Source: Candidatus Poribacteria bacterium
GTDB lineage: Bacteria; Poribacteria; WGA-4E; PCPOR2b
Direction of reading: 5' to 3'
Assembly (NCBI GenBank): GCA_022822785.1
Contig: JAJEAL010000134.1
Span: 75,349 to 139,348 of the forward strand
DNA: 64,000 nucleotides
Position numbers and translations under genes: made by a program. Below, one piece after another: positions 40,001 through 59,102 of this stretch (its first letter is position 1; each line of letters opens with the position of its first letter). The notes beneath the pieces are model-generated. The model ran no database searches. It was given only the letters and a program-made list of their open reading frames with translations, and was not told where the DNA came from.

Positions 40001-41180
40001 ATCGGTGCCTCGTTTAACCGAGAACCGGACGCATTGGTAATGTAGTAACCTTGTAGCCCGTTGGGCAGGTTGAAGATAACCTCCCCACCATCATGGGTGA
40101 AAGCGAGGGGGTGGGTGAAGATGTTCTGTGTGCCGACACTGCCAGCGAAGTCGTAACTTTTCCAATACGCGCCGTAGCGAGAGGTATGCCGCTCCAACAT
40201 CCGGTTATTCGCGGAGACCCCCGAATTGTTCGTGCCTGCTCGCCAGACACGCACACCCGGTGCATTTTGGAGGTTGCGGACGACATCGACCTCCAGTCGG
40301 GTCTCTAACTCCCTGTCGGTTAATGGTAGAGACAGTAGGTCGTGGTATAACGGGGGTAGAGATGCATTTGCCAGAAACCAGTCAATATGAATCGATGGTA
40401 TATCACACGCCATCTCCGTCTGTAACCGCGTCAGTTGTGCCTTCAGTGCGGTCTGTGTGGGTGCATCATACGAGATATGATAGGGATATTCTGCTTCTAT
40501 CTGCGTCCAGGCGTCATTGACATCCCACTCGTAGTGTCTGAGGTCGATGTAGAAAATCGTCCCCTGAGTGTCTATCGGCTCTGGGTTGGTAACGGCACTT
40601 CCCCATGAGAGACTGTTGACTAACTTGTTAAGTCCCTTACGGTATTCTTGGAGGATGCTCGGTGGCTCGCCTGCGTTGTAGAGATGTGTCATTGTGAAGT
40701 AACGGGCAAAAGCACGGTCAAATGACGAAAGTGACATCAGGTGTGTCTCAATGGTGGTGAGTACTTCACTAGGCGAGATAAAGTTACCATTGGTTGTGGT
40801 GGTCGCTGCCCAGTCAGGGGCACCGGCTAAAATCCAATTCCGAATGGTGTTAATTTCTTGATCGGATAGGGGAGGCTGATTGAGTGGCATCCGTTTGGCG
40901 GTGTCAGTGGTTATGAGTCGGTTATAGAGTTCGGAGGTCTGCGGGTTTCCGGGGACGACGGTGCCATTTTCGATGAGTGCGTTGTGTTCAATTAGGAGTG
41001 CATCTTTAAAGGATCCTGTGGGACCGTGGCAGACGAAGCATTTCTGTTCAAGGATAGCGTGGGCATCGAGTGCTACCCCCTGTTGAGCGGTTACGGTTTG
41101 AGAACCGACCATGAGAATTAATAAACTGATGAGTACGATGCGATACTGCTGCTTACAAACCACTGAATAACGCTTAAACA
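37060..41180 (-). CDS. Giant secreted multidomain protein: signal peptide, two CXXCH haem-c sites, ~12 leucine-rich repeats, cohesin-like domain, two dockerin repeats, T9SS (Por) C-terminal sorting domain
   Basis: Start taken at MFKRYSVVCKQQYRIVLISLLILMVGSQTVTA. Motifs CFVCHG and CLGCH. LTNLRWLVLDNNAISDISPLAG x many. GWQFDIVFDPNILE. DINRDGVVTIVDLVLV / DVNGDGVVNILDLAVV. C-terminal NYPNPFNPETWIPYQL...GLYFYTLTAGEFTATRKMLILK. Confidence 0.75.
38650..39330. repeat. Intragenic 66-bp tandem repeats encoding the 22-aa LRR units
   Basis: Periodic ...gcaagcggagatat.tc.gatat... on the plus strand; the antisense ORF shows a repeated LVNPASGDISDI. Confidence 0.7.
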
Positions 41181-41300
41181 TAGAGAGTAACTCCTGAAAT
41201 GCAAGTTTGTAAAGGTTACGGCACACGGCGTCCCGACAAATTGGGACGATAATCTGTGCCCTCTGTGTCCTCCGTTGAATCCGCGATTCAGACAAATGCC

Positions 41301-41380
41301 ACATGTCGCCCCGCTGGGGCTTGGAAGGAAGAGCCTATCGCCTGGCTATAAACATATCGCCCCTCTGGGGCTAAATGCCC
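41301..41380. repeat. Two further copies of the hairpin repeat family, upstream of the giant gene
   Basis: ACATGTCGCCCCGCTGGGGCT (41301-41323) and TATAAACATATCGCCCCTCTGGGGCT (41348-41373). Confidence 0.45.
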
Positions 41381-42453: not shown

Positions 42454-42747
42454 TCAGAACTTACGTAAGGTCAGCGTACCTTTCCGTGCCATGTGGTACG
42501 GAGAGTAGCCCACCGGACAGGGTGGAGCGACGGTGACTTGGGGGTAGAGCTGCAAGGCGGCTTGCTGAGAGATGAACGTAGAGAGGACAATATCTAGGTC
42601 TAGGCTCAGGTGTTCGTTGTGCTGCTCAACTGCGCCGATGGGGATGATAGCGGCTTTCAGCCTGCCGCTCTGCAACGCTTCCCGAATCTCTTTCCGGGTG
42701 CACTCGCCTAGCATGACTCGGTAGGGGTTGACGTATCGGTTCGCCAT
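42454..42747 (-). pseudogene. Creatininase-family (creatinine amidohydrolase) N-terminal fragment, 97 aa
   Basis: AAIIPIGAVEQHNEHLSLDLD matches the creatininase V.PVGS.EQHG.HLPL.TD motif. It is only about one third of family length, with no room for the remainder. Confidence 0.45.
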
Positions 42748-44170: not shown

Positions 44171-45067
44171 TTAACGGTTAAAGAAGAAATCTTCCGCTGT
44201 CTTGAAAAGGATTTGTTCTTTATCCGAATCACTCAGAAAATCAGCGTGGTCGTTGATAAGCGCGATGGCAGCGGGAAAATCGGTGTGTGGGTTGTTCATT
44301 ACTACGGGACCGCCGCTGTCGCTTTCCCACATACAGCGCTCCGGACCGAAGGCGTCGACTACCCGACGGATCAGCGGCAGGAGATCCAGATACGGTGCCT
44401 TCCCATCCCCTAACGCCTGAAAGGGCCCCAGCTTGACCATCACACGCTTGTGCTTTGCCATATCGCAGAGCGTTTTGAGGTCATCTTCGGGGAAGATGCC
44501 GTCTCGTATCCGCACCCCGCAGATGTGATCCAGAATCACAGGGGTGTCGGGGAAGCGGGTGCACATTCGATCCAGATCTGGCAGATCGTCGAGTCCCATG
44601 AGGAAACTCAAGGCGAGGTTATGCGCTGCCCCTGCTGCAAACATCGCCTCATACCCCGGATAGTCGAGCCACCGGGAGACATCACCAATCGGCATACGCG
44701 CGGTTTTGCCGCCACGCACACGGAAGGCATAGATGCCTTGACGGGATAGGGCAATCATCGTTTTATCCGGACTGGCGAGCGATACATCCGTCACCGCTGG
44801 CACGATGCCTGTGCCCACAAAGGTGTCCGGAGCGTTGGCGATAAGGTCTATGATGTAGCTGTGATCGAGACCGTACCACGTCATCTGGACAAGGTTTATC
44901 CGGACTTTGCCGACCAAGCGACTGTACTCGAAATGTTGTTCTGGGGTAAAGGAGGGCAGCCATAGGTCACTTGGATTGAAACCGGGTGCTAACGGATAGG
45001 TTTCAAAGTCGTCTGTCCACACGTGGATATGTGCGTCGATGACTCTATCTTGTATATTTATCCCCAT
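44171..45067 (-). CDS. Amidohydrolase-2 family metal-dependent hydrolase (lactonase/decarboxylase-like TIM barrel)
   Basis: 298 aa, VIDAHIHVW N-terminal His-x-His motif. Confidence 0.7.
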   Translation of the reverse strand: MGINIQDRVIDAHIHVWTDDFETYPLAPGFNPSDLWLPSFTPEQHFEYSRLVGKVRINLVQMTWYGLDHSYIIDLIANAPDTFVGTGIVPAVTDVSLASPDKTMIALSRQGIYAFRVRGGKTARMPIGDVSRWLDYPGYEAMFAAGAAHNLALSFLMGLDDLPDLDRMCTRFPDTPVILDHICGVRIRDGIFPEDDLKTLCDMAKHKRVMVKLGPFQALGDGKAPYLDLLPLIRRVVDAFGPERCMWESDSGGPVVMNNPHTDFPAAIALINDHADFLSDSDKEQILFKTAEDFFFNR

Positions 45068-45265
45068 TTGCTTTTCGTTCCCTTTGCCTTAGAGTTGGAA
45101 GAGTGGAAGAAGGTCCCCTAATCTCCCATGCTTTCACCCATCTAGTATGTTTCTTGAGATATTATCACAAATGCCAATGGGAATCCATGAGAAACTTCGG
45201 AAGAAAAGCGGTTTTCCAGTGAACCTTTTCAGTTCGCCCAACACTAAAGGGGGTAGGAGGGCATT

Positions 45266-45805
45266 GTGGCAAGGGATATCGGAGAATATCACCCCCAGAT
45301 TGCACAGTTCGTTGATCAACTCTGTCGTGTCTACTATAAGCACAGTCAGCCTGAAGACCGCAGGGATATCAGCAGCGAGGTTGCCTTAATCGCGCATCAG
45401 AACCGCGAGCAGATTGCGGACGAATCCGAACGGGCATTTCTGGGATGGCTCCATCAAATTGCACAAAATGTGGTTCGGAACTGGTCACGCCGTGAAGGAA
45501 CTGCTGCCAGACGTGCGCTTGGCAGTCTTGACGACGAAAATTTTGGGACTGGGCAGATACTATCGGATGCACATACACCAGAGACAGATCTTCTCTTTCA
45601 AGAGAGAATGACAGTTGTTCGGAACGCAATCTCGGAATTGCCTTTGATTCATCAACAGGTGATTTGGTTATTCTACATTGAAGGACTTTCGGTGAAGGAG
45701 ATCGCAGGGAAGCTCGGCATTAGGAAAGGAACGGTTAAAAGCCGTCTATATCATGCAAGAGAACAACTCGCGACACGCTTGGCATCCTATTTTGCCGAGA
45801 GTTAA
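45266..45805 (+). CDS. ECF (sigma-70 family, group IV) RNA polymerase sigma factor
   Basis: 179 aa, region-4 HTH (IEGLSVKEIAGKLGIRKGTVKSRLYHAREQL) and region 2. Confidence 0.8.
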   Translation: MARDIGEYHPQIAQFVDQLCRVYYKHSQPEDRRDISSEVALIAHQNREQIADESERAFLGWLHQIAQNVVRNWSRREGTAARRALGSLDDENFGTGQILSDAHTPETDLLFQERMTVVRNAISELPLIHQQVIWLFYIEGLSVKEIAGKLGIRKGTVKSRLYHAREQLATRLASYFAES

Positions 45806-45825
45806 TAATAAGAGGAAAGGAAACT

Positions 45826-46173
45826 ATGAAGCATCAAGCACTACTTCTTGTCATCTCTTGTATGACACTCTCGATCGTTCTTGGTGGGTGCCATGTAGAA
45901 ATAAATGTAAAAGAAGAAGAAGAGGGTTTTTTGACAGTCAAGAACCGTTCAAATGTAACAATCACGAGTATTTTTATCGCTGCTGCTGAAGATGATTCTT
46001 GGGGGGCAGATCAACTCAAATCCGATATTCTACTACCTGGTGCTATAGTAACTTTTACTATTGAACCTGGCGCCTATGATGTCAGGGTTGTATCTGAACA
46101 TCATCGAGATTTCATATATGAAGCTGACATCTCGAGTGGGTGGACGACAACCGTGGCAATCAGATTCAGATAA
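45826..46173 (+). CDS. Small lipoprotein (lipobox LGGC)
   Basis: 115 aa, MKHQALLLVISCMTLSIVLGGC signal plus lipobox. Confidence 0.45.
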   Translation: MKHQALLLVISCMTLSIVLGGCHVEINVKEEEEGFLTVKNRSNVTITSIFIAAAEDDSWGADQLKSDILLPGAIVTFTIEPGAYDVRVVSEHHRDFIYEADISSGWTTTVAIRFR

Positions 46174-46422
46174 GAAAGCTGCAAGAACGACCTTCCTGCA
46201 AAGAAACCACGTTGAGAGCGAGGGTAATTCGGCGGATGATCCGATCGCGGATTGGGTTACGCTACTTTCTGTCAACTGCGTAACGCTTAAACAAGTTGAG
46301 CGTAGCGAAATTCTAATCTTATCAGGGTTGTTCTGAATCCCGATGTCCACGTCGGGGGCTTTGACGGTTCAGTTGTGTAAGTCCTATTGATACTAAAATA
46401 AAACGGAAGGAATAAGGTAATA

Positions 46423-48921
46423 GTGAAACATCTCTTGTCGATATGGGAGGCGAATTTGTATCTGTTCTTCGCCCTTGTGATGCTCATTCTCGTAATGCCG
46501 CTCGCGGCTCTGTCCCAAACCGGGACGATTGAAGGCACTGTTTATGATGGGAACACCAACGCCCCGGTCGTCGGCGCAGATGTTCATATCCTCGGGACCG
46601 ATGAACGCCAAACAACCGATACGGAAGGGAAGTTCTGGTTTATAGAAATGGTTCCAGGCACCTACACCGTGTCAATTATTCACAAAATGTACGACACCCC
46701 TACAGAAACCGATGTAGAGGTCACCGCAGGTCATACCACTCAAGTAACGCTGTACCTAGGCGAGGTACTCATGCTAGAAGAGGTTATTGTTGAAGGGGAA
46801 CGCCTCCCGCCAACAATCAGTCGAAAGGACATCCGCGGGAGCGAATTGATACGTATCCCCGGCGTTGGTAATGATGCGCTCAAGGGGTTGACAACGCTTC
46901 CGGGCATCGGTGTTCCCAATGATTACTTCGGCATTCTCTATATCCGTGGAAGTGAGCCGGGATCTAACCTCTACTATTTTGACCGGACACCGCTTGGATA
47001 TCCGTTTCACTGGGGCGGTCTACTCTCGACTGTCAGCTCGGAAGTCATTGATAAAATTGATATCTATGCCGGTGGATACGGCGGGGAATTTGGGTTGGAT
47101 TCGCAGGCGGTGTTGGACATCCACTCACGTGATAGCATAGAAGAACGGATAAGCGGTAAATTTAACCTGAACATCCTCTACTCCGAAGGGCTGCTTGAGC
47201 GCAGACTTGGGGATGAGGGATATGTGTCTATTGCCGGACGACGGAGCTACATCGATCTCATTGTTGGACGGTTCATTGATGAACAGCAGTTTCCCTACTT
47301 TTCGGACTATCAACTCAAATTTGCCTATCCTCTTGGTGAAAGGCATTGCTTGACACTCAACAGCTTTGCTGCAACCGATCATTTCCACGTTGAGGAGGCG
47401 ACATCTGTAGAAGTTACAGAAGTGGAGAGCGGTCAGATGGAAGAAGAAACGCAGACATTTGAAGGTGCACGCGCCTCTGCTTTTTTCAAAAATGGGTTTA
47501 ACGCACAAGGCCTCCATCTCCATTCCAATTTCACTGAAAATCTTACCTCCCAGTTCTCGCTCACCCGTTCGTTCAATTTCCTCACTATCAACTTTGAAGC
47601 GCCCATCACGGAGTCGTATGAATTCGGTTCGGACGGTGAACTTGTGTCTGAAGTGGACTACGGTCACTACGACATAAATATCAAGGTTCCGGTCTATACG
47701 TTGAGAGAAGACGTGTCCTACCGATTAAATCTACGTCCTGACGATACTAGTCATCAAAGTGAGTCTACCGCATTGGAAACAGGATTCCTTCTTTCCTTCA
47801 GTCCTGCCAACAGTTTCGAGGACAGCAGGATTCCACAATTTGAAGAGCGCGATGACCGCGAAGAAACGGTTACCCTAGTTGTTGATGAAAATGGGGAGGC
47901 GGTCGAAGAAACTATCGTGGGTGGAGAAGGATTGGAGTTAGTTAGTATTGAAGAGAATCACTACGAATTCGGGCACGATTTCCGGCGCGCTGAGGGTTAC
48001 CTACAGGGGCGATATGACCCGTTGCCGTTTCTCTCTGCTGCGCTAGGGATTCGGTTGGATTATCTGGACGTGACAGGGCAGACCTCCATACAGCCGAGGG
48101 GGAGCTTAAGTTTTGCGTTGCCGGGCGGTTCTAACCTCCGGTTCGCGTATGGACATTATGAACAGAGTCCACAACCGCATCAGATACTGTCGGAGAACGG
48201 GAATTCTGCGTTGGAATCAAGCCTTGCGCGACACTATATCATGGAACTTGAAGGCGAACTTTCATCTCGCACGGAATTGAAGTTCGCTACTTACTACAAA
48301 GATATGCAGAAGTTGGTCACAGCGGATGAGATAGCGAATTATCTTAATCAGGGAACTGCGTATGTTAGCGGGGCAGAGGCGTTCCTGCGGCACCGTGTGC
48401 CAGATAAGTTCTTCGGCTGGATCTCGTATGCTTATACGCACGCTGAACGGCGCGAGAATCCGGGGGATTTCTACCGACCTTATTTTTTTGATAACACGAA
48501 TATTGTTAGCGTTGTTGCCAACTACAACTTCACGCCTAAGTTTGAGATTGGCGCGAAGTGGCAATATTTGAACGGAACCGCTGAAGTGCCAATCAGCTCC
48601 GTTGTTCTCGTTCAAGACCCGCTGACACGCGGGTTGAACCCGCTTTTGGCGGATATTGATGAATCCGTTACTGCTGAACTGACCCCGTACCATAAGTTGG
48701 ATCTCCGGGTGAGTTACAAATTCGACTTTATGGGCTTACGGATAGGTGCGTTTCTCGATATTCTGAACGTCTACAACCGGAAAAACAGTGTGAAATTTGT
48801 CTTTACCCCGGATGAGCTGCTTGAGGTTCAAGGTGAAGAGGTGGAAATCGAAGAGCCTGAAATCTTTGAGGCGCAGCAATTCCCGCGCATTCCCTATTTT
48901 GGTCTGACTGTTGAATTTTAA
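46423..48921 (+). CDS. TonB-dependent-receptor-like outer-membrane protein with an N-terminal CarboxypepD_reg domain
   Basis: 832 aa, signal peptide, GTIEGTVYDGNTNAPVVGADVHI, plug-like region, long beta-barrel-like C-terminus ending in Phe. Confidence 0.65.
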   Translation: MKHLLSIWEANLYLFFALVMLILVMPLAALSQTGTIEGTVYDGNTNAPVVGADVHILGTDERQTTDTEGKFWFIEMVPGTYTVSIIHKMYDTPTETDVEVTAGHTTQVTLYLGEVLMLEEVIVEGERLPPTISRKDIRGSELIRIPGVGNDALKGLTTLPGIGVPNDYFGILYIRGSEPGSNLYYFDRTPLGYPFHWGGLLSTVSSEVIDKIDIYAGGYGGEFGLDSQAVLDIHSRDSIEERISGKFNLNILYSEGLLERRLGDEGYVSIAGRRSYIDLIVGRFIDEQQFPYFSDYQLKFAYPLGERHCLTLNSFAATDHFHVEEATSVEVTEVESGQMEEETQTFEGARASAFFKNGFNAQGLHLHSNFTENLTSQFSLTRSFNFLTINFEAPITESYEFGSDGELVSEVDYGHYDINIKVPVYTLREDVSYRLNLRPDDTSHQSESTALETGFLLSFSPANSFEDSRIPQFEERDDREETVTLVVDENGEAVEETIVGGEGLELVSIEENHYEFGHDFRRAEGYLQGRYDPLPFLSAALGIRLDYLDVTGQTSIQPRGSLSFALPGGSNLRFAYGHYEQSPQPHQILSENGNSALESSLARHYIMELEGELSSRTELKFATYYKDMQKLVTADEIANYLNQGTAYVSGAEAFLRHRVPDKFFGWISYAYTHAERRENPGDFYRPYFFDNTNIVSVVANYNFTPKFEIGAKWQYLNGTAEVPISSVVLVQDPLTRGLNPLLADIDESVTAELTPYHKLDLRVSYKFDFMGLRIGAFLDILNVYNRKNSVKFVFTPDELLEVQGEEVEIEEPEIFEAQQFPRIPYFGLTVEF

Positions 48922-48974
48922 CGGTTCGCAAAATAGGTTTGAAGCATTAAATATTGAAGGGAGGTTGAACAAAG

Positions 48975-49646
48975 ATGAAATGTAATCAAGTACAGGAAAA
49001 GCTACTTCACTCTATTGACAAGGAGTTGTCTCCACAGATTCGAGAGCATCTGCTTGGCTGTAAAGAATGCGAGCAGAAATATCGAATCTTACAGACGACG
49101 CAGAAATCGCTAGAAGATTTTGGCCGTGCTGTTCGAGATGGTTCTATTTCAATGGAGGCACCGCCATTTCCGCCGGTTCGACGCCGTTCCTTCTGGATCG
49201 AAATACGCGATAGCCTGAAAACGCCGGTGCCGGTGTGGATACCATCTGCTATCGGTGTGGTTGGGTTGCTGCTGTTCGTTGTGTCGATTTTTTCGCCGCT
49301 CACGCCGTCGGTGGAATGGGGTACACAAAAAGGGAGTGAAAATGCAGGTCGCATCGCTCCACCACTCTCAGCGGAGGGGATGTTGGAGTTTCTCATTATG
49401 CCTGAACCAACGGATGCAGCACAACTCGCCGCCTCAATCGAAACAGTTGAAACGTTCCTGAAGATGCATCCCGACGATCTCGCGATGCATGCCAAACTGG
49501 TTGATCTGTATCAATCTCGACTCAAGTTGGGGGAACTGTCCGCCGGCGAGCGCGACGCCATGGCAGAGAAATTATCACTTGAACGACAACGTTTTTCAGC
49601 GCTGCTGGAAAATTTTACGAAAGGGGTAGAGAATGATTCAGAATAG
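48975..49646 (+). CDS. Anti-sigma factor (zf-HC2 putative zinc finger plus a single TM helix)
   Basis: 223 aa, CxxxxxxLLxxxDxELxxxxxxHLxxCxxC motif and one TM segment (VWIPSAIGVVGLLLFVVSIF). Confidence 0.7.
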   Translation: MKCNQVQEKLLHSIDKELSPQIREHLLGCKECEQKYRILQTTQKSLEDFGRAVRDGSISMEAPPFPPVRRRSFWIEIRDSLKTPVPVWIPSAIGVVGLLLFVVSIFSPLTPSVEWGTQKGSENAGRIAPPLSAEGMLEFLIMPEPTDAAQLAASIETVETFLKMHPDDLAMHAKLVDLYQSRLKLGELSAGERDAMAEKLSLERQRFSALLENFTKGVENDSE

Positions 49647-52600
49647 CTTGGGACAAACAGGTGGATGGAAGGAGGGAAAGATGGAAGGATGGAACCAATC
49701 TTCCATCTTCGCTTCCGCTTGCATCTTGATTCGATGGGCGCTTTCGGTCTGTAGTTTATTTGTAATTTTTTCACAGCCCATCCACGCTGAACAATATGCC
49801 ATCCTCGTGGGCGTTTGGGACTATGAAAATCCAAACTTACAGCTTGATGCGCCGCCAAACGATTTGAAGCTGATGGAAGCGGTGCTCTCGGCACAGGGTG
49901 TCACACAGGAACAGATGCACATCCTCCCCAATCCGAACAAGGCACAGATTCAACGTAAATTTCGGGAACTCAGCCGCCGCCTGACCCCTTCCGATAGCCT
50001 GCTTTTTTATTTTAGTGGGCATGGCACGCAGATTATTGACAAACTCGGAACTTTTCCGGGGGATGAAGCGAAAGGGCGATACCCGGACAGGAACGATGAA
50101 GCACTGTTGCCTGTGGACGCGGATCTGGCATCGCCCAAGACGTACCTGTTGGATGACGAACTCAATACCCTGCTCCAAGAACTGCCGACGCAGCAGGTCT
50201 CCTGCATTATTGACACATGCTACTCCGGCGACATACTTCGAGAGATTCGTCTGGGACGGCCCAAAGGCTCGCCGGTGGCGGATACCCCAACGGGGATCGC
50301 TCAACCTACCCAGATTGTAAGCCATACGGAGGACATCTTGGATGAGTCCGCCGATTTTGCGCTGCTGTTAGCGGCTTCTGCATACAATCAGGTCGTCCAT
50401 GAACTGCGCATCCCGATTGGCGAGACCTATCTACCTGTCAGTGCGATGACCTATTCTCTCTATCGAGGGGTGTTTGCGCGCTCGCAACCTCCTGCAGATC
50501 AGATGGACGCGAGACAATGGGACGGCAAACTGACGTACCGCCAAATTATTCAGCATATCCAGAACGACCATAGGCAGTGGAATCTAGCGTGGCAGCCTGT
50601 CCTTGAGGGACCAGGAAATCGCTTCAATGAGGTGTTTCTCCCTACTGACTTGATGCCGCAATTAAACGACACATTAACCCTGACAACAATAAAGGGGCAG
50701 TCGATATCGGTGAGTCGGCGGGCGTTGGCGCTTGCCGGTGGTGGCAATTTTCAGCTTGGCGCTGCGAGTGGTATCAACACCCGACATTGGGCGGTTGTTA
50801 TCGGCGTGGATGCGTATCCGTCACCCTTTCAGTCGCTCAAGTATGCTGCCGATGATGCCAAAGCGGTCGCGCAGGTGTTCCAAGATGCAGGCGCCAATGT
50901 GACGCTGATGACGCCTGATAGCCTGATTCAGCCGACGAAGGCGAATATAATTGAACAGCTCCAACGACACGCTCAACTTGAAGGGGTAGATCTGCTGACC
51001 GTTTATCTCTCTGGGCATGGCGAGGATGTCAATGGAACAGGTTACTTTCTACCGATGGATGTCGCCGATCCACTCGTGGACGGTGGACTGAGTCTTGAAA
51101 ATCTGTTTGCGATTCTCAACCGCGCAAACGCCAAGCATCGGTTCGTCATCGTTGATGCGTGTCGAGTGGCACCGAAGGCCCACTTCGTTGCGGCGCTGTC
51201 GCGCTATAGTGAGGAGAGCAATATCATCTTCACAGCGTGTGATAGCAACCAGTGGGCACCGGAAGTTCCACGCCTGAAACATGGACTGTTCACCTACTTC
51301 CTGCTCAAAGGGCTGCGCGGCGGCTCCCAGGACCGGGGCGCAGCAGGTGCCGATGGGACCGTCACGGTATTGGGGTTATTGGATTATGTGACACGCGGCA
51401 TTGAGGAGTGGCATTCCCACCTGTCCGAGGAGCAACACTATCCGCAGCAGATTACGCCCCGCGTCTTTTATAACGGGAAATATATCTCACTGTTGAACAA
51501 CCAAGGGATTGACCCGGCGGTGATCAACAATGAAGGGCTGCTTCCCCAAATTACCAATACGTTCCGACATCAACTCGCCCGTAGCTTGGAATTAGCACCT
51601 TCTTCAGAAAGAAATGATGGTGTTACACCGTCAACCCCAAAAGGTAACGATTTACATCTGCCTGTGACCATTTCACTAATTCCGTGGATTAGTAGTGTTG
51701 GCGTCCATGACTTCAACCGTAATATCACAACGAACCTGTCACTCAATATTATTGCAGGTTATCATACCAAGTTGGATGGCATCGAATTGGGTGGGGTTTT
51801 GAACATAAAGGGGCTTGAGGCGAAGGGCTTACAATTCGCTGGGGTTGGGAATATCGTCGGTGGGGATGTAGACGGTTTCCAAGTTTCAAGTGCACTTAAC
51901 GCTGTGGGCAGAAATATGGAGGGTTTCCAAACGTCGGGTGGAGTCAATGCTAGTGGTCGCGACGTTAACGGGTTCCAAGTCGCGGGTGGTGCCAACATCG
52001 CCGGCAAAAACGTGGAAGGTTTCCAAGCGTCAGGTGGAGTCAACGTTAGCGGTGGTAATCTCGATGGTTTCCAAGCAGCGGTGGGCGGCAATGTGGTTGG
52101 CAGAGATGTGGTCGGTGTCCAAGCCACAGTCGGGGCGAATCTGGGTGGGCGTGACCTTCGAGGTTTGCAGGCAGCTGGCGGCGCGAACTTCGTCGGTGGG
52201 AAAGTGGGAGGTCGAAGTCTACAGGCCGCGGTCGGACCCAACATCGCTGGGCGTTTAGAGGGGACACAGCTCAGCGTGTCTGCTAATATCGCGCTTGATC
52301 GGTATCAAGAGACAAATCTCTCGTACGCAGGTACACAGATTGGGATGGTCAATATTGCGCCCGGTGATATTGGGACACAGATTGGGCTTCTCAATATTGC
52401 TGGTCATGTGGGTACGTCGCAGGTGGGCCTGCTTAACGTCTCCGGACGGATGTCGGGCGTCCCGATCGGATTGATCAGTTTCGTCAAGGATAATCCACTA
52501 CACCTGCAACTGTGGAGTAGCGATACGGAGGTTGCAAACCTTGGGATTCGACTCGGTAGCCGACACGTTTACAGTCTGTTGATGATCGGCAGTTACCCAC

Positions 52601-52950
52601 ACGGCGATTTGGGCAGATGGTCGTCCGGGTTTGGTATCGGTGGGCACATTCCGCTCGGCAGGCAACTCTTTCTGAACGTTGACTTTATTACGCGCCAGGT
52701 GGGTTATACCGACGAATGGGCGGAGGAGACTTGGCGGTATGATGAACACACCGTCTTGAACAAACTGCGCCTTGGGTTTGGCTGGGAGCAGCACAAATGG
52801 TTCAGCTTCTTTGGTGGTGTTTCGCTCAACTTCCTCGTCTCGGATAGAGGGGACACTTCGGATTTTGGGTACGGATTTGATCATGTATACCGAAGGGATG
52901 ATACGACCGTTCGTATTTGGCCCGGGTTCTTTGCGGGGGTTCAGTTTTGA
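49633..52950 (+). CDS. Secreted tandem-caspase (peptidase C14 x2) protein with Gly-rich 16-aa repeats and a beta-barrel-like C-terminus
   Basis: His/Cys dyads FYFSGHG...DTCYSGD and VYLSGHG...VDACRV. Signal-like N-terminus. Repeats GFQxxGGxNxxGxxxx. C-terminal ...GFFAGVQF. Confidence 0.7.
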   Translation: MIQNSLGQTGGWKEGKMEGWNQSSIFASACILIRWALSVCSLFVIFSQPIHAEQYAILVGVWDYENPNLQLDAPPNDLKLMEAVLSAQGVTQEQMHILPNPNKAQIQRKFRELSRRLTPSDSLLFYFSGHGTQIIDKLGTFPGDEAKGRYPDRNDEALLPVDADLASPKTYLLDDELNTLLQELPTQQVSCIIDTCYSGDILREIRLGRPKGSPVADTPTGIAQPTQIVSHTEDILDESADFALLLAASAYNQVVHELRIPIGETYLPVSAMTYSLYRGVFARSQPPADQMDARQWDGKLTYRQIIQHIQNDHRQWNLAWQPVLEGPGNRFNEVFLPTDLMPQLNDTLTLTTIKGQSISVSRRALALAGGGNFQLGAASGINTRHWAVVIGVDAYPSPFQSLKYAADDAKAVAQVFQDAGANVTLMTPDSLIQPTKANIIEQLQRHAQLEGVDLLTVYLSGHGEDVNGTGYFLPMDVADPLVDGGLSLENLFAILNRANAKHRFVIVDACRVAPKAHFVAALSRYSEESNIIFTACDSNQWAPEVPRLKHGLFTYFLLKGLRGGSQDRGAAGADGTVTVLGLLDYVTRGIEEWHSHLSEEQHYPQQITPRVFYNGKYISLLNNQGIDPAVINNEGLLPQITNTFRHQLARSLELAPSSERNDGVTPSTPKGNDLHLPVTISLIPWISSVGVHDFNRNITTNLSLNIIAGYHTKLDGIELGGVLNIKGLEAKGLQFAGVGNIVGGDVDGFQVSSALNAVGRNMEGFQTSGGVNASGRDVNGFQVAGGANIAGKNVEGFQASGGVNVSGGNLDGFQAAVGGNVVGRDVVGVQATVGANLGGRDLRGLQAAGGANFVGGKVGGRSLQAAVGPNIAGRLEGTQLSVSANIALDRYQETNLSYAGTQIGMVNIAPGDIGTQIGLLNIAGHVGTSQVGLLNVSGRMSGVPIGLISFVKDNPLHLQLWSSDTEVANLGIRLGSRHVYSLLMIGSYPHGDLGRWSSGFGIGGHIPLGRQLFLNVDFITRQVGYTDEWAEETWRYDEHTVLNKLRLGFGWEQHKWFSFFGGVSLNFLVSDRGDTSDFGYGFDHVYRRDDTTVRIWPGFFAGVQF
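51870..52265. repeat. Intragenic ~48-bp tandem repeats (about 8 copies) encoding the Gly-rich 16-aa units
   Basis: Periodicity is visible in all frames. The antisense frame gives PPTxxP repeats. Confidence 0.6.
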
Positions 52951-53016
52951 ACACAATATGCCAGATGCCCTTTTTATGTATGTGGGTTGGGCTTCCTAGC
53001 CCAACATCAAAGGCAT

Positions 53017-53032
53017 CGGGGCAAGATGCCCC
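53017..53032. repeat. 16-nt hairpin CGGGGCAAGATGCCCC, copy 1
   Basis: Identical to 56825-56840; lies 35 nt beyond the 3' end of the PLD-SNF2 gene. Confidence 0.6.
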
Positions 53033-53066
53033 TCCCACTGGCCCGAACGGATTTTTCGGCGTTAAT

Positions 53067-56000
53067 TTAGACCAATGCTGCGCTGCAAATAATCTTTGGA
53101 ACGGTTTCATTTTCAAGTTGTGCGGCTTGCTGCCTCGATTCCCATTCCCGCATGTTGTGTTGACGATACAGGTCTCTCAGATTTTTCAGCAAGGCATCTC
53201 CGGTCACGCCGTTTCGACGCAGTAAATTGAGTTCTCGATTCACCGCGGTTGTAATTGTCCCACGAAACGCCTTTTCCAGTGTGCTGACTTGAGCGGAGAC
53301 ATCTTCATCACCACCCCCCGCCCCCCCGCCGCTAGCGGGGGGGAGAGAGGGGGTAATGATTTTCAATTCCCTTAACACATACCGTTGCCCCTGTGTCAGG
53401 GAGAGGGTGTGCTTGCGTTCCGATTGCAGGTCTTTGATTTCTTGGATGAATAACCGCTTGACCCCCATGATAGTCGCATTGTAATCCGTAGGCAACTCGC
53501 CCCCGGGAAGTTCCGGTTCGCACTCAATCTGATTGAGGATGCGGGAGATGTCTCTGGAGGTAATATCGCCTTTTTCATCCAAAAGGAACAGTTGTTGATA
53601 ACGTCCCGCTTGACAGAACAGATAGGTGCCTTCTGAGCCTTTTGGGATTGCTGTGCGAATCCCGTCTCTCAGATTCGCGATTCGCTCATACTCCTCCGGA
53701 TCCTCACGCCGCAGCTGTCTCAGAATTTCTTCGGCTTCGTTGAGATCGATTACCTTTTCATCTTCGCTTTCTTCAAACAGACTCAACTGCTCGCCTTCCT
53801 CCTCATAGATAGCATACATCGCCGCTTCGTTAAGTTGTTCGGAGTTATCGAGGATAGCTGCGTCCTCACCAATCGTATCGTGAATTTCTTGGATACGGCG
53901 TTGAAGGATTTGTTGCAATCCCAAATTTTGTTCGATGCCGGTTTCTGGCAGAAAGTTAAAGCCGTAAATCACATCGTGCTCGCTACCGATACGGTCGATA
54001 CGCCCGAATCGCTGGATCAGTCGCACAGGATTCCAGTGGAGATCGTAGTTAATGATTTTGTCGCCGTCCTGTAGGTTAAGTCCTTCCGCCAATACGTCGG
54101 TAGCGATAAGGGTGGACAGTTCCGATTCTCCACGCTGAAAACGGTACTCTGAATTTGCTTTCGGCGCAAAACGCCCCACGACCCGTTCTTTGCTTTTATC
54201 ACCGCTATAGATCACGTCAATATCAGTCCGTTTGCTGTTGGGGTTAATATTGTCAAACAGATAACGCGCTGTATCCGCATATTGGGTGAAGATTAGGCAC
54301 TTTCCCTCGTTAAGAGGCGGTTCTGCCAACCGTTTTTTGAGGATTTGCAGCTTCGCATCTTGCTCAGCGGTGATTGGTGATACAAGGTCTGACATCGCTC
54401 GTAGCAGCTGGAGGTCATGCTCAATATCCCCACGTAGCTCGTCGATTTTGAAATCTGCAATGTTGTATCGCGCTGAAGCTTGCCTCAACGCATCCATCAG
54501 GTCCTGTTCCTCTGCTTCGTTCGGTTCGTAGAGGAGGTCTTGTGCTTGGTCACCGGCGGGAACAATGCCTTCTTCTATAGCTTTGAGAAAGCGTTCGTGA
54601 ATCTTCAACAATCGACGCACTGATATCTTAAAGGCGTACACACTGGATTCAAATCGCTTGAACAGGAGTATCCGCATCAGCCCACGAAGGTTGACCCCTG
54701 AACGTTGCAGGTTGGTGTAGGGCTCCTGTTTCTGCTTTGACTTAATTACGTAATTCCAGAGCCCATAGCGGGCATAGGTTAGTGTGCTAACTGAAGAGGA
54801 AGGTGATCGGCTGCCTCGCGGTTTTCCCAGATGTTCCCGCAGCTGAAGGTAAAGCCCCTGATAGGTGTCTTCAATATTGTAGGAGATGGTTTCCAAGACA
54901 CGATTGGGGAAGAACTGCTTGTTTCCACCGACAACGACGTAAGCCTTTCGATGTCCGTCAAGATACTCCTGAAATTGGGACGGATCAACGGGTTGGTCGG
55001 TCTCTCCGTCGAAGCCGTACCAACGCAAGATATGATTGCGGGTGCGTCGGATGAGGATATTTCCTAACAGGTCGGGGAGATTTTTTTCTCGCTTCTCAAT
55101 CTGGCGAAAGTATGTCCGCAGGTTGGGGGGATCTATTGGTAAGTCAGTGATGTCTTCGGGGTGAAAGAGTTTAATCTGGTGGTATACGTCCCAAGCACTC
55201 TTGTTGCGTGGTGTCGCGGTGAGAAAACAGCATTGTCGCCCGGTGGCTAAAAAGGCCTGCAGCACTCTGTAACGTTGCGTGTCACGATGGCGGAAATTAT
55301 GACTCTCATCAACCAGTACAAAGTTCCGGTCGCGGTATATCACATCATCAAGAATTGTCGAAGTGAGATCGTACCCCTGTTCATCCGGTCGATCCTCACC
55401 TTCTCGTAAATGTCCCATAGAAAGGACGCGGGCGTTGAGTTGATAGACTTCGTTGTAGCGTTCCCACATTTGGACCAACGGGGCGGGGCAGACAATTAGT
55501 GGACGTGCATTTTCCGCCCATTCAAAATACTTGACAATTGCTGCACCGATGTAGCTTTTACCGAGACCGACGACATCTGCGACAAAGGCACCGCCGTAAT
55601 CCCGAATAATCTGCACCGCTTGCTGGACCGCAACTTTCTGAAAATCCGCTAACTGTTTGGTAATGTCCTCCTCCCAGAGTATGTCCCCCTCGTCGCCCCC
55701 TTCAAGTCGATCTTTAACCAACTCATAGAGTGTCTTCATGTAAATGTCGTAGGGGGACACGGGGGCGATTGCCCACGATGATTTCATTACCTCCATTAGG
55801 GATTCATCGAAATTTTGCGCTTCATCCCAGAGTTCGTCGAACCAGCGACATAGTTCGGCGTGGTTTGCGTTCCCTTGCACCACAACGTTTAGCTCGGTAT
55901 TGTGGCTTACACCGGCTAGTGTGAGGTTAGATGATCCGACAACGGCGATGCCTTTTTCATAGCGTCCTTCGTCGTTATAATCGAAGATGTAGGCTTTGGC

Positions 56001-56465
56001 GTGTAGTCTGCCTTTGGTGTAGACGCGGACCCGCAGCCGCTTTTCTTTTATCATCTCGACCAACGTTTTGATCAACAATTCACCGTCGTCGGTCTGATCC
56101 ATTAACTCCACAGACTCTATGATGTTCTCTGCGGTTTCTGCCCCCATCTGTTGACTTTCGATGCGTTTGGGGTAGGTCTGGGCTTCGGCGACATCGGCGA
56201 CCTGTTCTAACCTGGGATACCCTTCGGCGAGCTGCTCCAACGTCTCACGATTGGTGGTATTACCGATCAGCAAGCGGAGTTCTTTGACGCCCTGTAGTTC
56301 TTTCGCAATGCTTTGAAATCCCGACAGAAAAAAATACCCTACCGCGAATCTCGCTTTTTCGGTGGAGTCGAGGATGAGGTTGATGTGTTCTGCCAACTTT
56401 TCGCTTCGGTTGTCAATGATGTCGTGTTGCATTTCGGTTGCTTGCCCTAGTTTTTTGCCGTTCAA
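53067..56465 (-). CDS. PLD-family (HKD) nuclease fused to an SNF2-family SF2 helicase, 1132 aa
   Basis: HKD motif RLHAKAYIFD in the N-terminal domain. SNF2/DEXH motifs GLGKS, FVLVDESHNFR, LIATDVLAEGLNLQ, QRFGRIDRIGS. Confidence 0.75.
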   Translation of the reverse strand: MNGKKLGQATEMQHDIIDNRSEKLAEHINLILDSTEKARFAVGYFFLSGFQSIAKELQGVKELRLLIGNTTNRETLEQLAEGYPRLEQVADVAEAQTYPKRIESQQMGAETAENIIESVELMDQTDDGELLIKTLVEMIKEKRLRVRVYTKGRLHAKAYIFDYNDEGRYEKGIAVVGSSNLTLAGVSHNTELNVVVQGNANHAELCRWFDELWDEAQNFDESLMEVMKSSWAIAPVSPYDIYMKTLYELVKDRLEGGDEGDILWEEDITKQLADFQKVAVQQAVQIIRDYGGAFVADVVGLGKSYIGAAIVKYFEWAENARPLIVCPAPLVQMWERYNEVYQLNARVLSMGHLREGEDRPDEQGYDLTSTILDDVIYRDRNFVLVDESHNFRHRDTQRYRVLQAFLATGRQCCFLTATPRNKSAWDVYHQIKLFHPEDITDLPIDPPNLRTYFRQIEKREKNLPDLLGNILIRRTRNHILRWYGFDGETDQPVDPSQFQEYLDGHRKAYVVVGGNKQFFPNRVLETISYNIEDTYQGLYLQLREHLGKPRGSRSPSSSVSTLTYARYGLWNYVIKSKQKQEPYTNLQRSGVNLRGLMRILLFKRFESSVYAFKISVRRLLKIHERFLKAIEEGIVPAGDQAQDLLYEPNEAEEQDLMDALRQASARYNIADFKIDELRGDIEHDLQLLRAMSDLVSPITAEQDAKLQILKKRLAEPPLNEGKCLIFTQYADTARYLFDNINPNSKRTDIDVIYSGDKSKERVVGRFAPKANSEYRFQRGESELSTLIATDVLAEGLNLQDGDKIINYDLHWNPVRLIQRFGRIDRIGSEHDVIYGFNFLPETGIEQNLGLQQILQRRIQEIHDTIGEDAAILDNSEQLNEAAMYAIYEEEGEQLSLFEESEDEKVIDLNEAEEILRQLRREDPEEYERIANLRDGIRTAIPKGSEGTYLFCQAGRYQQLFLLDEKGDITSRDISRILNQIECEPELPGGELPTDYNATIMGVKRLFIQEIKDLQSERKHTLSLTQGQRYVLRELKIITPSLPPASGGGAGGGDEDVSAQVSTLEKAFRGTITTAVNRELNLLRRNGVTGDALLKNLRDLYRQHNMREWESRQQAAQLENETVPKIICSAALV

Positions 56466-56791
56466 TCCTGTGAGGATTCTGTTCGCAATGCTTGTCCAAT
56501 ATATTCGTCGTGTCGTTCGCTGAGATCTGTGGAATCACATTCCAATGTACCTGCCAAGGCTAGTAGTGGATCGGGGTTGCCAGACATCATTTTCCGTAAG
56601 TGACTGTCGTTTTCTACTATCCCGTCTAGGGCACTTTCGGCAGATAAATTTGTCTGCTCACGTTCAAACCGTTCAACCATAGCCGCAACCCATTGAGCGG
56701 TCATTTCTTCGGGAGTTTTCCCGAATTGTTGGGCGATATGTTTTAAGGAACGATACAAACTGTTCTCAAGTTTGATTGTTAATGTTTGCAT
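56462..56791 (-). CDS. Small putative ribbon-helix-helix (CopG/Arc-like) protein, translationally coupled (ATGA overlap) to the PLD-SNF2 gene
   Basis: 109 aa. N-terminal TLTIKLENSLYRSLKHIAQQFGKTPEEM is a strand-helix pattern typical of RHH. The assignment is tentative. Confidence 0.35.
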   Translation of the reverse strand: MQTLTIKLENSLYRSLKHIAQQFGKTPEEMTAQWVAAMVERFEREQTNLSAESALDGIVENDSHLRKMMSGNPDPLLALAGTLECDSTDLSERHDEYIGQALRTESSQD

Positions 56792-56824
56792 TGACTTGTA
56801 TCTCCTACGGATTGTTTTGATGGG

Positions 56825-56848
56825 CGGGGCAAGATGCCCCGCCTACGG
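56825..56848. repeat. 16-nt hairpin CGGGGCAAGATGCCCC, copy 2, extended as GCGGGGCAAGATGCCCCGCCTACGGG
   Basis: Identical core to 53017-53032, in the same orientation. Confidence 0.6.
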
Positions 56849-56860
56849 GATATGGTGTTA

Positions 56861-57331
56861 TTACTCCCTTGCCCAACCTATCAGTGCTTTATCGGGGGAG
56901 GCAATGTCGTTGATGGATGTATAATAGTAGCGTTCCCATCCGAGACGAGGCAGACCGGTGAAAATCATCAGGTTGAGTGGATATACATCACTATCGACAG
57001 CACGTCGAAAGTCGTCCCGAAATAGGAAGGTGGGCTTACCGAGTGCTATCGCTATTCCTAGCTCGATCATGACCCCTTCATCTGGGGGCACTCCGTTTAT
57101 GACCGCAAAAATTGCGTCCGCATCGAATACGTCCTGTTTGTCCTTCTGTCCAATTCGGTACGCCCAGTCGGAGGATAACCTGTCCTGGTTATTGCGTTCA
57201 AACGGCTCCCATACTTCTAACCCAACCGCTTCCAATGCCTTAACGAGAGCGGGTAAAGCGGTCTCTCGCAGTTGCTCTGAGAAGCCGTAGGGATTTGCCA
57301 GATATATTGTCTTTTTTTTTGTTACGGTCAT
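56861..57331 (-). CDS. Nucleoside 2-deoxyribosyltransferase / DNPH1 (Rcl)-fold protein
   Basis: 156 aa. IYLANPYGF...AVINGVPPDEGVMIELGIAIALGKPTF matches the NDT/DNPH1 D..G...E.G.A.A.GKP nucleophile motif. Confidence 0.6.
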   Translation of the reverse strand: MTVTKKKTIYLANPYGFSEQLRETALPALVKALEAVGLEVWEPFERNNQDRLSSDWAYRIGQKDKQDVFDADAIFAVINGVPPDEGVMIELGIAIALGKPTFLFRDDFRRAVDSDVYPLNLMIFTGLPRLGWERYYYTSINDIASPDKALIGWARE

Positions 57332-57336
57332 CGGTT

Positions 57337-58560
57337 CTACGATTCGCTCTCTTCTTGCAGAGATTTTGCCGCAAAAATTGTTAAGCGTAATTCTTCGCCG
57401 AACAGTTCGTATACAGGGATTTTGCCGCTAAGCTGCTCACTCTCGTTCAGGATGATACCAACCCCCTCACCCCGACGTTCTAAAAAGTGTCGCCGAACTA
57501 CCTGTGAACCCATATCATCGTCGAGCGTAATTTCCGAAAGTAGGCGAGCGAGGAGTTCGTTACGGGTTGCCTGATTATAGCGCAAATCGTCCACTGTTAA
57601 GGTATTTGCCAATGCACCCGGCGAATAGAGCTCTAGCCGGTCCGTGAACATAAATAGACGAATCTTCGATCCGGCTTTTGAATAATCTCTATGTACCACG
57701 GCGTTAACCACTGCCTCAAAAACCGCTCTCATACTGTATTGTGATCGCTCTATTCTGCCGATTTCCTTGCGAGCCGAGACTTGGTTATATCTCTCAACAA
57801 ATTTGAAGGCATCCACAATCTGTTGATCCAACGGTCCTCTAAAATCTTTACCATCAATCTGGTAGTTCGCATCCCTTTCCACGCCATTATAGAAAACAGC
57901 TTGAATGAAACTGTTGTAGAGGTAATCGTCGGGTCTATCATGACACATCAACAGACCAGCCACCGAGGCGCGATCCTCCTGCCCCTCTTTGACCAGCAAA
58001 CGCCTTTTCAATAGCAGGTCTTCTACCTTCTCACGTTCAGTCGCTTCTTCTGTGATAAATCGTTGATACAGTGTTTCCCTTAATATGTCTTTGTGAGTGC
58101 TCGGCACAAACTGTTCGTCAAAAGCGATGATACGTGCCTGTGAGCGGCTTTGTAGCAATCGCCCTAACTGCTCGGTGGTCATCCTGCTCTTGCTGCTGCC
58201 TTGACGAATGAAGTAACGGCCGGATGATTCGTGGACAAACAAGCTACGGGGCACCTCTATTTTTAACAGGTTTTTGTCATCAATCCGCAGTTTTTCGGTA
58301 AGGATGTGAACCATGGGGTCAATGTTATCCCGGCATACTTCAACCATTGTTCTCTCTATCCTGTCCAGATCTTGGCGATCCATACCGACAATTTCACTAT
58401 CGTCGTCAACACCGATCAGTATCACCCCACCGTTAGCGTTGGCAAAAGCAGCGACTTCCTCGGCAAGACTCTCTCTGTGAGGTAACTCTCTTTTGAATTC
58501 AATCGTTGAGTCTTTCCCTAGGTATATTTTTTCGGTGAGCTCGGTCAAACTGTCAAACAT
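57337..58560 (-). CDS. COG2865-type protein: AlbA_2 (Schlafen-like 'divergent AAA') domain plus C-terminal HATPase_c_4-like domain
   Basis: 407 aa, N-terminal ...KDSTIEFKRELPH...ANANGGVILIGVDD typical of AlbA_2. 5-bp gap to the NDT-like gene. Confidence 0.6.
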   Translation of the reverse strand: MFDSLTELTEKIYLGKDSTIEFKRELPHRESLAEEVAAFANANGGVILIGVDDDSEIVGMDRQDLDRIERTMVEVCRDNIDPMVHILTEKLRIDDKNLLKIEVPRSLFVHESSGRYFIRQGSSKSRMTTEQLGRLLQSRSQARIIAFDEQFVPSTHKDILRETLYQRFITEEATEREKVEDLLLKRRLLVKEGQEDRASVAGLLMCHDRPDDYLYNSFIQAVFYNGVERDANYQIDGKDFRGPLDQQIVDAFKFVERYNQVSARKEIGRIERSQYSMRAVFEAVVNAVVHRDYSKAGSKIRLFMFTDRLELYSPGALANTLTVDDLRYNQATRNELLARLLSEITLDDDMGSQVVRRHFLERRGEGVGIILNESEQLSGKIPVYELFGEELRLTIFAAKSLQEESES

Positions 58561-58676
58561 CGCTTATTCCTTAGATGAATATGCTATTGTCTGAATCGTG
58601 GATTGTCGTGGATTAACGCATGACACGGATTAAATCCCCGGTTTCCCATTGCTGGAAATTGTTACTTCCCTTGCGG

Positions 58677-58964: not shown

Positions 58965-59102
58965 AGAACCTCTTTTCTTTTCGGGACAATGTCCTTTGAC
59001 TCCCTCTTGTCAGGAAGCTAGCAAAATATCTTACTTATTTTTACTTCATTTTGGCATTGATCATAGGAGGGCGATTTACTACGACGAGGTAGTCCAGCAG
59101 AT

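Follow-up and report, generated by a model that had tools for sequence, protein, structure and literature searches.

The 64-kb stretch of DNA analysed here (the window), from contig JAJEAL010000134.1 of a Candidatus Poribacteria metagenome bin, contains a cluster of five plus-strand open reading frames (ORFs). By direct ORF reading, these encode a sigma factor of the extracytoplasmic function (ECF) class, a small putative lipoprotein, a TonB-dependent-receptor-like outer-membrane (OM) protein (OMP), a zinc-type anti-sigma factor and a protein with two caspase-like Peptidase_C14 domains (Table 1). The last of these is considered as a possible partner of the anti-sigma factor encoded immediately before it. 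The whole analysis was computational, and the ORF coordinates, together with the Pfam and NCBIfam matches, bear out an initial annotation that had described five co-directional genes, their domains and a double-C14 product of 1105 amino acids (aa). A genome scan yielded 27 Poribacteria loci, of which 26 had enough upstream sequence; the counts given for Poribacteria refer to these 26.

Table 1. Features of the cluster, with positions numbered along the window (TM, transmembrane segment; AF2, AlphaFold2).
Feature	Position	Strand	Remarks
ECF-type promoter motif TGAACC-N15-ACACTAAA	45220..45248	+	About 20 nucleotides (nt) upstream of the sigma start codon
ECF (group 4) sigma-70 factor, 179 aa, GTG start	45266..45805	+	Pfam Sigma70_r2, Sigma70_r4_2, Sigma70_ECF; TIGR02937
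Small putative lipoprotein, 115 aa, accessory	45826..46173	+	Signal peptide and LGGC lipobox by direct reading
TonB-dependent-receptor-like OMP, 832 aa, N-terminal CarboxypepD_reg, no STN	46423..48921	+	Pfam
Zinc-type (HxxxCxxC) single-pass anti-sigma factor, 223 aa	48975..49646	+	Motif at 49047-49070; TM at about 49224-49298
14-nt overlap, caspase ATG / anti-sigma TAG	49633..49646	+	Signature of translational coupling
Tandem-C14 / LA_2272-module OM protein, 1105 aa (1089 aa from 49681)	49633..52950	+	Signal peptide predicted to be cut after ...PIHA, about 49788
Palindromic in-frame insertion of 69 nt, signal-peptide n-region	49660..49728	+	Inverted repeat 49671-49716
C14 domain 1, metacaspase-like, His130 and Cys196 (1105-aa numbering)	49792..50680	+	Acidic GDEAKGRYPDRNDEALLPVD insert between His and Cys
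C14 domain 2, His462 and Cys510	50782..51492	+	Best Pfam stretch, residues 384-566
16-residue (48-nt) G-x-Q...N repeats, predicted two-strand-per-rung beta-solenoid	51838..52300	+	DNA repeat families D1 and D2
C-terminal OM-type beta-barrel ending ...WPGFFAGVQF, about 200 residues	52348..52947	+	AF2 and Foldseek

The caspase protein was found to match Peptidase_C14 over two stretches (E = 2e-35), with a PF00656 score of 122.9 bits (cut-off 21.4) that places it in the C14 family. The SGHG histidine and the D-x-C cysteine are intact in both domains and invariant in 27 homologues. The catalytic dyad is likewise invariant in the family of proteins with a single C14 domain, and the constancy of both dyads suggests that proteolysis is under selection. 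Cleavage after Arg or Lys (the P1 residue) would be expected of the C14 domains, given the D-x-C motif and the similarity to metacaspases. The best PDB sequence matches of domain 1 were yeast and Candida metacaspase-1, Arabidopsis MC9 and MC4 and T. brucei MCA2. In BLASTP comparisons with two members of the single-C14 family (P0314 and P0341), domain 2 was the closer relative, with an E-value of 6e-12 against 2e-7 for domain 1. Since domain 2 is related to the C14 proteins of the sigma/anti-sigma triads of other phyla and domain 1 is metacaspase-like, the Poribacteria protein looks like a C14-module core to which an extra metacaspase-like domain has been added at the N terminus.

The C-terminal module of the protein is formed by the solenoid and the barrel. 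The D1 and D2 repeats are spaced at 48 and 96 nt, and the number of solenoid repeats differs between homologues through insertions and deletions of repeat units. The AF2 model of the module, built from a 103-sequence alignment, reached a pLDDT of 90.7 and a pTM of 0.73 and presented the solenoid followed by long antiparallel strands. When the barrel was compared with the PDB using Foldseek, the best matches were the 8-stranded OmpW, Ail, OprH, OmpA, NspA and OmpX, with probabilities up to 1.0 and weak scores otherwise (E-values of 0.01-0.07, TM-scores of 0.4-0.55 on the target). The barrel is thus predicted to be of the small outer-membrane type (OmpA/OmpW/OmpX/Ail-like), confidently as a model and weakly as a database match. 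The signal peptide and this barrel agree with the extracytoplasmic location that the initial annotation had given to the caspase protein. No Pfam family was found for the barrel or the module. The LA_2272 repeat model NF047436 scored 17.2 on the window protein, under its cut-off of 25, which P0354 and P0271 pass. The C-terminal 450 aa retrieved, at E-values of 1e-54 to 1e-56, proteins named by NCBI as 'LA_2272 family surface repeat-containing protein', which places the module in that family. The literature on LA2272 was found to consist of two Leptospira OMP-prediction lists. A profile search of 1.84 billion representatives with the module returned 9,923 clusters, of which 4,191 lie at E <= 1e-30; in the family members, the module stands at the C terminus without exception. 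Among the 120 module homologues listed, about 30 carry one C14 domain (about 700-780 aa), including the 'ICE-like protease' of Myxococcus stipitatus (P0310), and about 14, from Bacteroidota, carry CarbopepD_reg_2 with or without STN. Many module homologues are module-only proteins of about 350-500 aa. The 71 long top-scoring representatives presented CarbopepD_reg_2 in 44 cases, STN in 40, C14 in eight and ankyrin repeats in one.

The anti-sigma factor has C3, H25-x3-C29-x2-C32 and a single TM segment, none of which varies among 17 homologues. The H-x3-C-x2-C motif, the single TM segment and the position of the gene in a sigma operon place the protein among the class I zinc-binding (ZAS, zf-HC2) anti-sigma factors, and it would be expected to bind and inhibit the sigma factor. 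The zf-HC2 assignment made at the outset was upheld in part, by the zinc motif and by the precomputed PF13490 (zf-HC2) match of several homologues; the window copy itself gave no Pfam match, and the NCBIfam anti-sigma models matched it weakly, under cut-off. The C-terminal extracytoplasmic domain of about 115 aa is conserved and predicted to be helical, with no Pfam or NCBIfam family. At the junction with the caspase gene, the 14-nt overlap reported earlier, in which the caspase ATG at 49633 precedes an anti-sigma stop codon ending at 49646, was confirmed and is kept as ATG-N8-TAG in the aligned Poribacteria loci. The AAAGGAG Shine-Dalgarno sequence for this ATG falls within the last part of the anti-sigma gene. 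In the public gene call, the caspase gene begins at 49681 instead (1089 aa); that start is served by a strong AAGGAGG Shine-Dalgarno sequence and is separated from the anti-sigma gene by 34 nt. This start as the ancestral state, which would remove the overlap, was rejected on homologue evidence. Most caspase homologues begin with MxQNSLG, which corresponds to the ATG at 49633, and this, together with the conserved ATG-N8-TAG, indicates that both the 49633 start and the 14-nt overlap are ancestral. Both starts retain the signal peptide. The alternative Shine-Dalgarno sequence and the ATG at 49681 are created by the GGAAG-rich 69-nt insertion (arms at 49671-49692 and 49695-49716), which is carried by the window and by loci L012, L014 and L015, in a variant form by L007, and is absent from most homologues; it may be a small mobile repeat. 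A similar GGAAG...CTTCC-rich stretch is present at 45090-45110, upstream of the sigma gene (window, L014 and L019).

The sigma factor scored 25.5 bits with Sigma70_r2 (cut-off 24), 54.9 with Sigma70_r4_2 and 71.3 with TIGR02937 (ECF; cut-off 42.9). It contains regions 2 and 4 only within its 179 aa and stands above the family threshold, as is characteristic of group 4 (ECF). Among the models of specific ECF groups, the best, TIGR02984, scored 67.6, below its cut-off of 183.75, and no group was assigned. The alignment of the sigma upstream regions presented a single conserved block, TGAACC-N15-ACACT(A/T)AA, followed by the AGGAGG Shine-Dalgarno sequence and the GTG start, both of which are kept among the Poribacteria loci. 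In the window, TGAACC-N15-ACACTAAA has this sole match, with 0.05-0.18 chance matches expected. The motif occurs once per cluster, at the head, exactly in 24 of the 26 loci and as one-mismatch variants in two; in L027, where the OMP gene comes first in the cluster, the motif stands ahead of that gene. The region before the anti-sigma gene measures 18-907 nt among the Poribacteria loci, and its only conserved part is the Shine-Dalgarno sequence. The ECF promoter search that the initial annotation had proposed thus gave a motif at the operon head and, in the Poribacteria locus alignments, no conserved promoter before the anti-sigma or caspase genes. Generic scans for sigma-70 promoters and terminators gave background levels only, and no Rfam match was found within 44800-53300. 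Because the sole conserved ECF-type promoter stands at the head and none precedes the anti-sigma gene, the cluster looks like one self-regulated ECF sigma operon, with TGAACC-N15-ACACTAAA as its presumed self-regulated promoter. The sigma-gated expression suggested for the caspase gene is therefore probable.

By tblastn, 26/26 Poribacteria loci were found to have the sigma, anti-sigma and caspase genes on one strand and in an unchanged order, and the genes flanking the cluster vary among these loci, which argues that the linkage is not due to chance. The synteny search recommended earlier accordingly found the sigma/anti-sigma pair linked to a caspase gene at every locus, where a lack of such linkage would have counted against the initial annotation. 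The OMP gene lies between the sigma and anti-sigma genes in 23 loci; L025 and L028 lack it and have the sigma gene directly against the anti-sigma gene, and in L027 it stands upstream of the sigma gene. The OMPs fall into two divergent classes, with 83-93% and 38% identity to the window OMP, and the cluster neighbours keep 55-65% identity or more where the OMP classes share 38%. The lipoprotein gene was found in ten loci. Sigma factor, anti-sigma factor and caspase therefore form an invariant core, whereas the OMP and the lipoprotein, which can be missing or displaced, look like accessories. This speaks against the earlier description of the caspase as the 'cargo' of the cluster, since the caspase gene accompanies the anti-sigma gene in every locus and the OMP and lipoprotein are the variable parts. 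Locus L028 (7974-12591) is a second, paralogous sigma/anti-sigma/caspase cluster in the genome that also holds L025 (CAXXCS010000002.1), and its caspase gene is interrupted by an IS630-like element with helix-turn-helix and DDE_3 transposase ORFs at 9110-10370. The divergent Poribacteria clade of L022, L024 and L026 has 800-900 nt between its OMP and anti-sigma genes (about 6360-7320), with room for another small gene.

Comparable arrangements were found in other phyla. When metagenomes were scanned with the alignment of the single-C14 family, 552 relatives were found, of which 80 loci were kept. Loci L087/88, L089-91, L092-94 and L175 encode a sigma factor, then an anti-sigma-like protein of about 270 aa, then a single-C14-module protein, with 4-nt overlaps. 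Hidden Markov models made from the seed sigma and partner proteins were searched against the metagenome loci with at least 1500 nt upstream (n = 60). An anti-sigma-like gene was found directly upstream on the same strand in 54/60 loci, and both sigma and anti-sigma genes in 49/60; most of the remaining loci have a sigma homologue on the opposite strand. At the anti-sigma-like/C14 junctions, 4-nt ATGA or GTGA overlaps accounted for 51 out of 68. The middle proteins of these triads start with an L-x-x-x-x-LGEL anti-sigma-like segment, which anti-sigma models match weakly. In the Bacteroidota loci L086 and L178, a gene for an STN-module protein follows those for an ECF sigma factor and FecR, with overlapping stop and start codons. 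Consequently, three unrelated types of anti-sigma factor each precede an LA_2272-module protein: the zinc type with tandem C14, the LGEL type with single C14 and FecR with STN. The extracytoplasmic domain is helical in the zinc type and beta-rich in the LGEL type. By its position, the C14 head would fill the slot that contacts the anti-sigma factor. That the module carries STN and follows FecR in Bacteroidota speaks for a partner in signalling and against an output. A DUF2807 protein is encoded near the sigma/FecR/STN-LA_2272 genes of both L086 (4104-4751) and L178 (7717-8454), and could be either an additional conserved part of the STN variant or one of its targets. In L175 (5001-9665), a module-only LA_2272 protein (374 aa) is encoded immediately upstream of a complete sigma/anti-sigma/C14 triad, so that the two LA_2272-type proteins may work together. 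The C14 loci L034-L084, from other phyla and with about 30% identity to one C14 domain, were set aside as unrelated C14 families that are uninformative on the triad; no sigma or anti-sigma gene was detectable in them by tblastn with the window proteins.

It is proposed, with slightly less than even confidence, that the caspase protein acts as the site-1 protease of an anti-sigma signalling mechanism. The anti-sigma factor would hold the sigma factor at the inner membrane, and the C14 protein, exported via its signal peptide, would be anchored in the OM by its LA_2272 barrel, with the solenoid stalk and the C14 domains pointing into the periplasm and meeting the C-terminal domain of the anti-sigma factor. 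Upon an envelope or host cue, the protease would cut this domain (site-1 cleavage, probably after Arg or Lys), degradation of the anti-sigma factor would start and the sigma factor would be freed. The freed sigma factor would drive transcription of the whole operon from its single TGAACC-N15-ACACT promoter, in a positive feedback whose output would be the TonB-receptor-like OMP, the lipoprotein and more sigma factor, anti-sigma factor and protease. Small even-stranded barrels have both ends in the periplasm, and in FecA/FecR-type signalling the STN domain is periplasmic and contacts the anti-sigma factor. From these two considerations, the C14 heads would be expected to face the periplasm and to meet the extracytoplasmic domain of the anti-sigma factor. 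A periplasm-facing, OM-tethered enzyme is thus likelier, from the barrel fold and the STN analogy, than the secreted protein with a role in surface proteolysis envisaged in the initial annotation. Proteases that free ECF sigma factors have precedents in DegS, acting on RseA, and in Prc, acting in cell-surface signalling. For a protease that is conserved, keeps its catalytic residues and occupies an anti-sigma-contacting slot, site-1 cleavage would be the most parsimonious role. In a broader and rather doubtful extension of the proposal, LA_2272-module proteins would be widespread, unrecognised OM partners of ECF anti-sigma factors, without a TonB-type barrel; where they have C14 heads, as in Poribacteria, these would transmit the signal by cutting the anti-sigma factor, an extracytoplasmic bacterial 'caspase switch' controlling transcription.

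Several points weigh against the site-1 proposal. Sigma binding, promoter use, localisation and cleavage are all read from sequence and model. The orientation of the C14 domains is likewise deduced; the NCBI label is 'surface repeat-containing', and an autotransporter-like display at the surface is possible. The full-length AF2 model (1089 aa, 27 close homologues) was poor in the C14 region, with a pLDDT of 51.6, and was not used for that part of the protein. Genomic context cannot tell regulators from targets, as is noted in the ECF reclassification (PMC7826278). Between Poribacteria and the widespread triad, the sigma factors share 22% identity and the anti-sigma factors no detectable similarity; since neither is detectably orthologous, the analogy rests on the shared third component. 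Furthermore, Myxococcus stipitatus has a 295-aa partner gene and no adjacent sigma gene, and one module-only protein has no sigma gene nearby. A reading in which the caspase-barrel protein is an output of the sigma factor, namely an envelope-stress protease acting on periplasmic, OM or host (sponge) proteins and exerting no control over the anti-sigma factor, is possible, if somewhat unlikely. The whole operon is apparently under one ECF-type promoter, which would make the protease sigma-dependent; envelope-stress regulons commonly hold periplasmic proteases, such as DegP in the sigma-E regulon, and the intact dyads are compatible with such a role. Nevertheless, a mere target would not be expected to overlap the anti-sigma gene by start and stop codons across phyla and with three unrelated anti-sigma types, nor to be replaced in the same gene position by a protein with an STN signalling head instead of C14, and the genes that vary in Poribacteria are those of the OMP and lipoprotein, not that of the caspase.

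Two further explanations were considered. The anti-sigma domain could serve as a safety catch that inhibits or chaperones a dangerous periplasmic protease, so that a disturbance such as phage or envelope damage would free both sigma factor and protease, and degradation of envelope proteins by the protease would lead to regulated lysis or abortive infection. Translational coupling implies a fixed proportion of the two proteins and probably a complex, caspase-like proteases act in bacterial cell-death defences (e.g., the gasdermin systems), and a defence island lies directly downstream in the window. This explanation is nonetheless judged improbable, since the island is not kept beside the cluster (L005 has other neighbours) and the known death-associated bacterial caspase-like proteases are cytoplasmic. 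When the cluster was searched with PADLOC-DB 2.0, no defence system was found; the C14 domains matched a generic 'caspase' model, and the sigma factor, OMP and anti-sigma factor gave no match. A defence system was therefore rejected as the principal interpretation, and the role in regulated cell death that the initial annotation had suggested gained no support. The OMP could alternatively be the central component, as a TonB-receptor-like sensor or transporter (or an Oar-like exporter), with a caspase that processes it or is handled by it and an LA_2272 barrel that is simply an anchor. The OMP gene does lie between the sigma and anti-sigma genes in most Poribacteria loci (23/26), a CarboxypepD_reg protein is encoded near one non-poribacterial triad (L092), and Oar/PopC is a Myxococcus example of protease export by a CarboxypepD_reg-TonB transporter. 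An arrangement centred on the OMP is considered very unlikely, because the OMP has no STN, is absent from L025, L028 and most non-poribacterial triads, and, with two classes only 38% identical among better conserved neighbours, does not belong to the conserved core.

The cluster is best filed as a sigma-linked metacaspase operon with new features, namely the tandem C14 domains, the zinc-type anti-sigma factor and the inserted TonB-receptor-like gene. Four of the five Myxococcus xanthus metacaspases were reported in operons with sigma-70-family genes, with no mechanism (Asplund-Samuelsson et al. 2012, PMC3501461), and similar operons were found in Anaeromyxobacter, Haliangium, Sorangium, Ralstonia and Fibrobacter (PMC3501461). 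That study described co-occurrence only, without the anti-sigma factor, the OM module or a mechanism. These operons share with the window a C14 gene placed in an operon with a sigma-70-family gene, and the family concerned (P0310) also shares the LA_2272 solenoid and barrel at its C terminus. The proteins of that family have one C14 domain, whereas the Poribacteria protein has two, with the extra metacaspase-like domain 1, and, unlike the window, their operons have other sigma and anti-sigma types and no inserted OMP gene. The FecI/FecR/FecA system is similar in its ECF sigma factor, its single-pass anti-sigma factor, the OM protein encoded alongside and its self-regulated operon, as presumed for the window. 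It differs in that the window OMP is without STN and the anti-sigma factor is of the zinc type, not FecR; additionally, the proposed OM partner would consist of a protease head on a solenoid stalk and a small barrel, compared with the 22-strand transporter of the FecA type. DegS/RseP on RseA and Prc/RseP follow the same proposed logic, in which an extracytoplasmic site-1 cut frees an ECF sigma factor. The known site-1 enzymes are serine proteases whose genes do not overlap that of the anti-sigma factor, while the window candidate is a predicted OM-tethered cysteine protease of clan CD.

Anti-sigma factors of the Dma type are fused through a disordered linker to an 8-strand OM barrel and give proteolytic fragments (PMC10927553). 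Dma resembles the present case, as proposed, in the physical link between an ECF anti-sigma system and an OM barrel, which has 8 strands in Dma and best matches 8-stranded proteins in the window. Dma has no protease domain and its barrel is fused, whereas the window barrel is on a separate, translationally coupled polypeptide with C14. Csx29, a protease of the caspase-like CHAT type, cleaves Csx30 in a Cas7-11 system that includes an ECF sigma factor (PMC10028731). In Craspase, as in CalpL/CalpT/CalpS, a protease cleaves a sigma-binding inhibitor and an ECF-type sigma factor is freed, as proposed here; both act in the cytoplasm, are linked to CRISPR and have RNA or cyclic oligoadenylates as activators, without a signal peptide or OM anchor. 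CHAT domains have been mentioned near ECF54 (PMC8999054), and caspases are not mentioned in the main text of the ECF reclassification (PMC7826278). Metacaspases and orthocaspases (Yca1, TbMCA2, AtMC4/9 and the cyanobacterial enzymes) share with both window domains the His-Cys dyad and the D-x-C motif, and those of known structure share with domain 1 the acidic stretch between His and Cys; a P1 residue of Arg or Lys is accordingly expected (PMC6426788). In contrast to these enzymes, the window protein carries a signal peptide for export and joins two tandem C14 domains to a solenoid and an OM barrel.

Bacterial caspase homologues are abundant and almost none has a known job; similarly, ECF sigma systems are a major bacterial signalling route, many groups of which have no known input. 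If the protease is indeed the partner of the anti-sigma factor, a concrete function would fall to a large bacterial metacaspase family, to which four operons of the genetically tractable Myxococcus xanthus belong, and a new OM signalling module would be recognised, with STN in Bacteroidota and C14 elsewhere. The system would also be one of the few conserved envelope-sensing circuits identified in Poribacteria, which are uncultured sponge symbionts, and may bear on how the host is read.

The two accessory proteins were also characterised. The OMP scored above cut-off with CarboxypepD_reg (59.5 bits) and TonB_dep_Rec_b-barrel (52.3 bits, cut-off 27). Plug reached 19.3 bits on the window OMP, under the cut-off of 23.9, and 30.8 bits on the L023 homologue. 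A TonB-box-like 'EEVIVEG' after the CarboxypepD_reg domain was spotted by eye only. No STN match was found on the 832-aa OMP (E <= 0.01) or on its L023 homologue, so the protein is not a TonB-dependent transducer of the cell-surface signalling type, consistent with the earlier remark that it has no N-terminal signalling extension. The 115-aa lipoprotein matched no Pfam or NCBIfam family.

Directly downstream of the cluster in the window, a defence-island-like block on the minus strand (53067-61648) holds genes for an HKD(PLD)+SNF2 helicase (PADLOC C3a139/DrmD-like), for a protein resembling nucleoside deoxyribosyltransferases, for an SLFN/AlbA_2+HATPase_c_4 protein that gave a weak pAgo-associated match, and for two TIR proteins, one of them ThsB-like (E = 4e-81). 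In L005, a 950-aa fusion of an ECF sigma factor to WD40 beta-propellers and a 789-aa WD40 protein are encoded directly downstream of the cluster (13891-19629); sigma-WD40 fusions have been reported in Planctomycetes, and the architecture of the 950-aa protein resembles them. On the minus strand of the window, a creatininase-family ORF (42454-42747) is 97 aa long, compared with 292 aa at the same position in L006, and is probably a truncated remnant. Also on the minus strand, at 37060-41304, a 1414-aa protein combines leucine-rich repeats with cohesin, dockerin and FlgD_ig domains (Pfam, same gene in L001), and is a eukaryote-like repeat protein such as has been reported for sponge symbionts.

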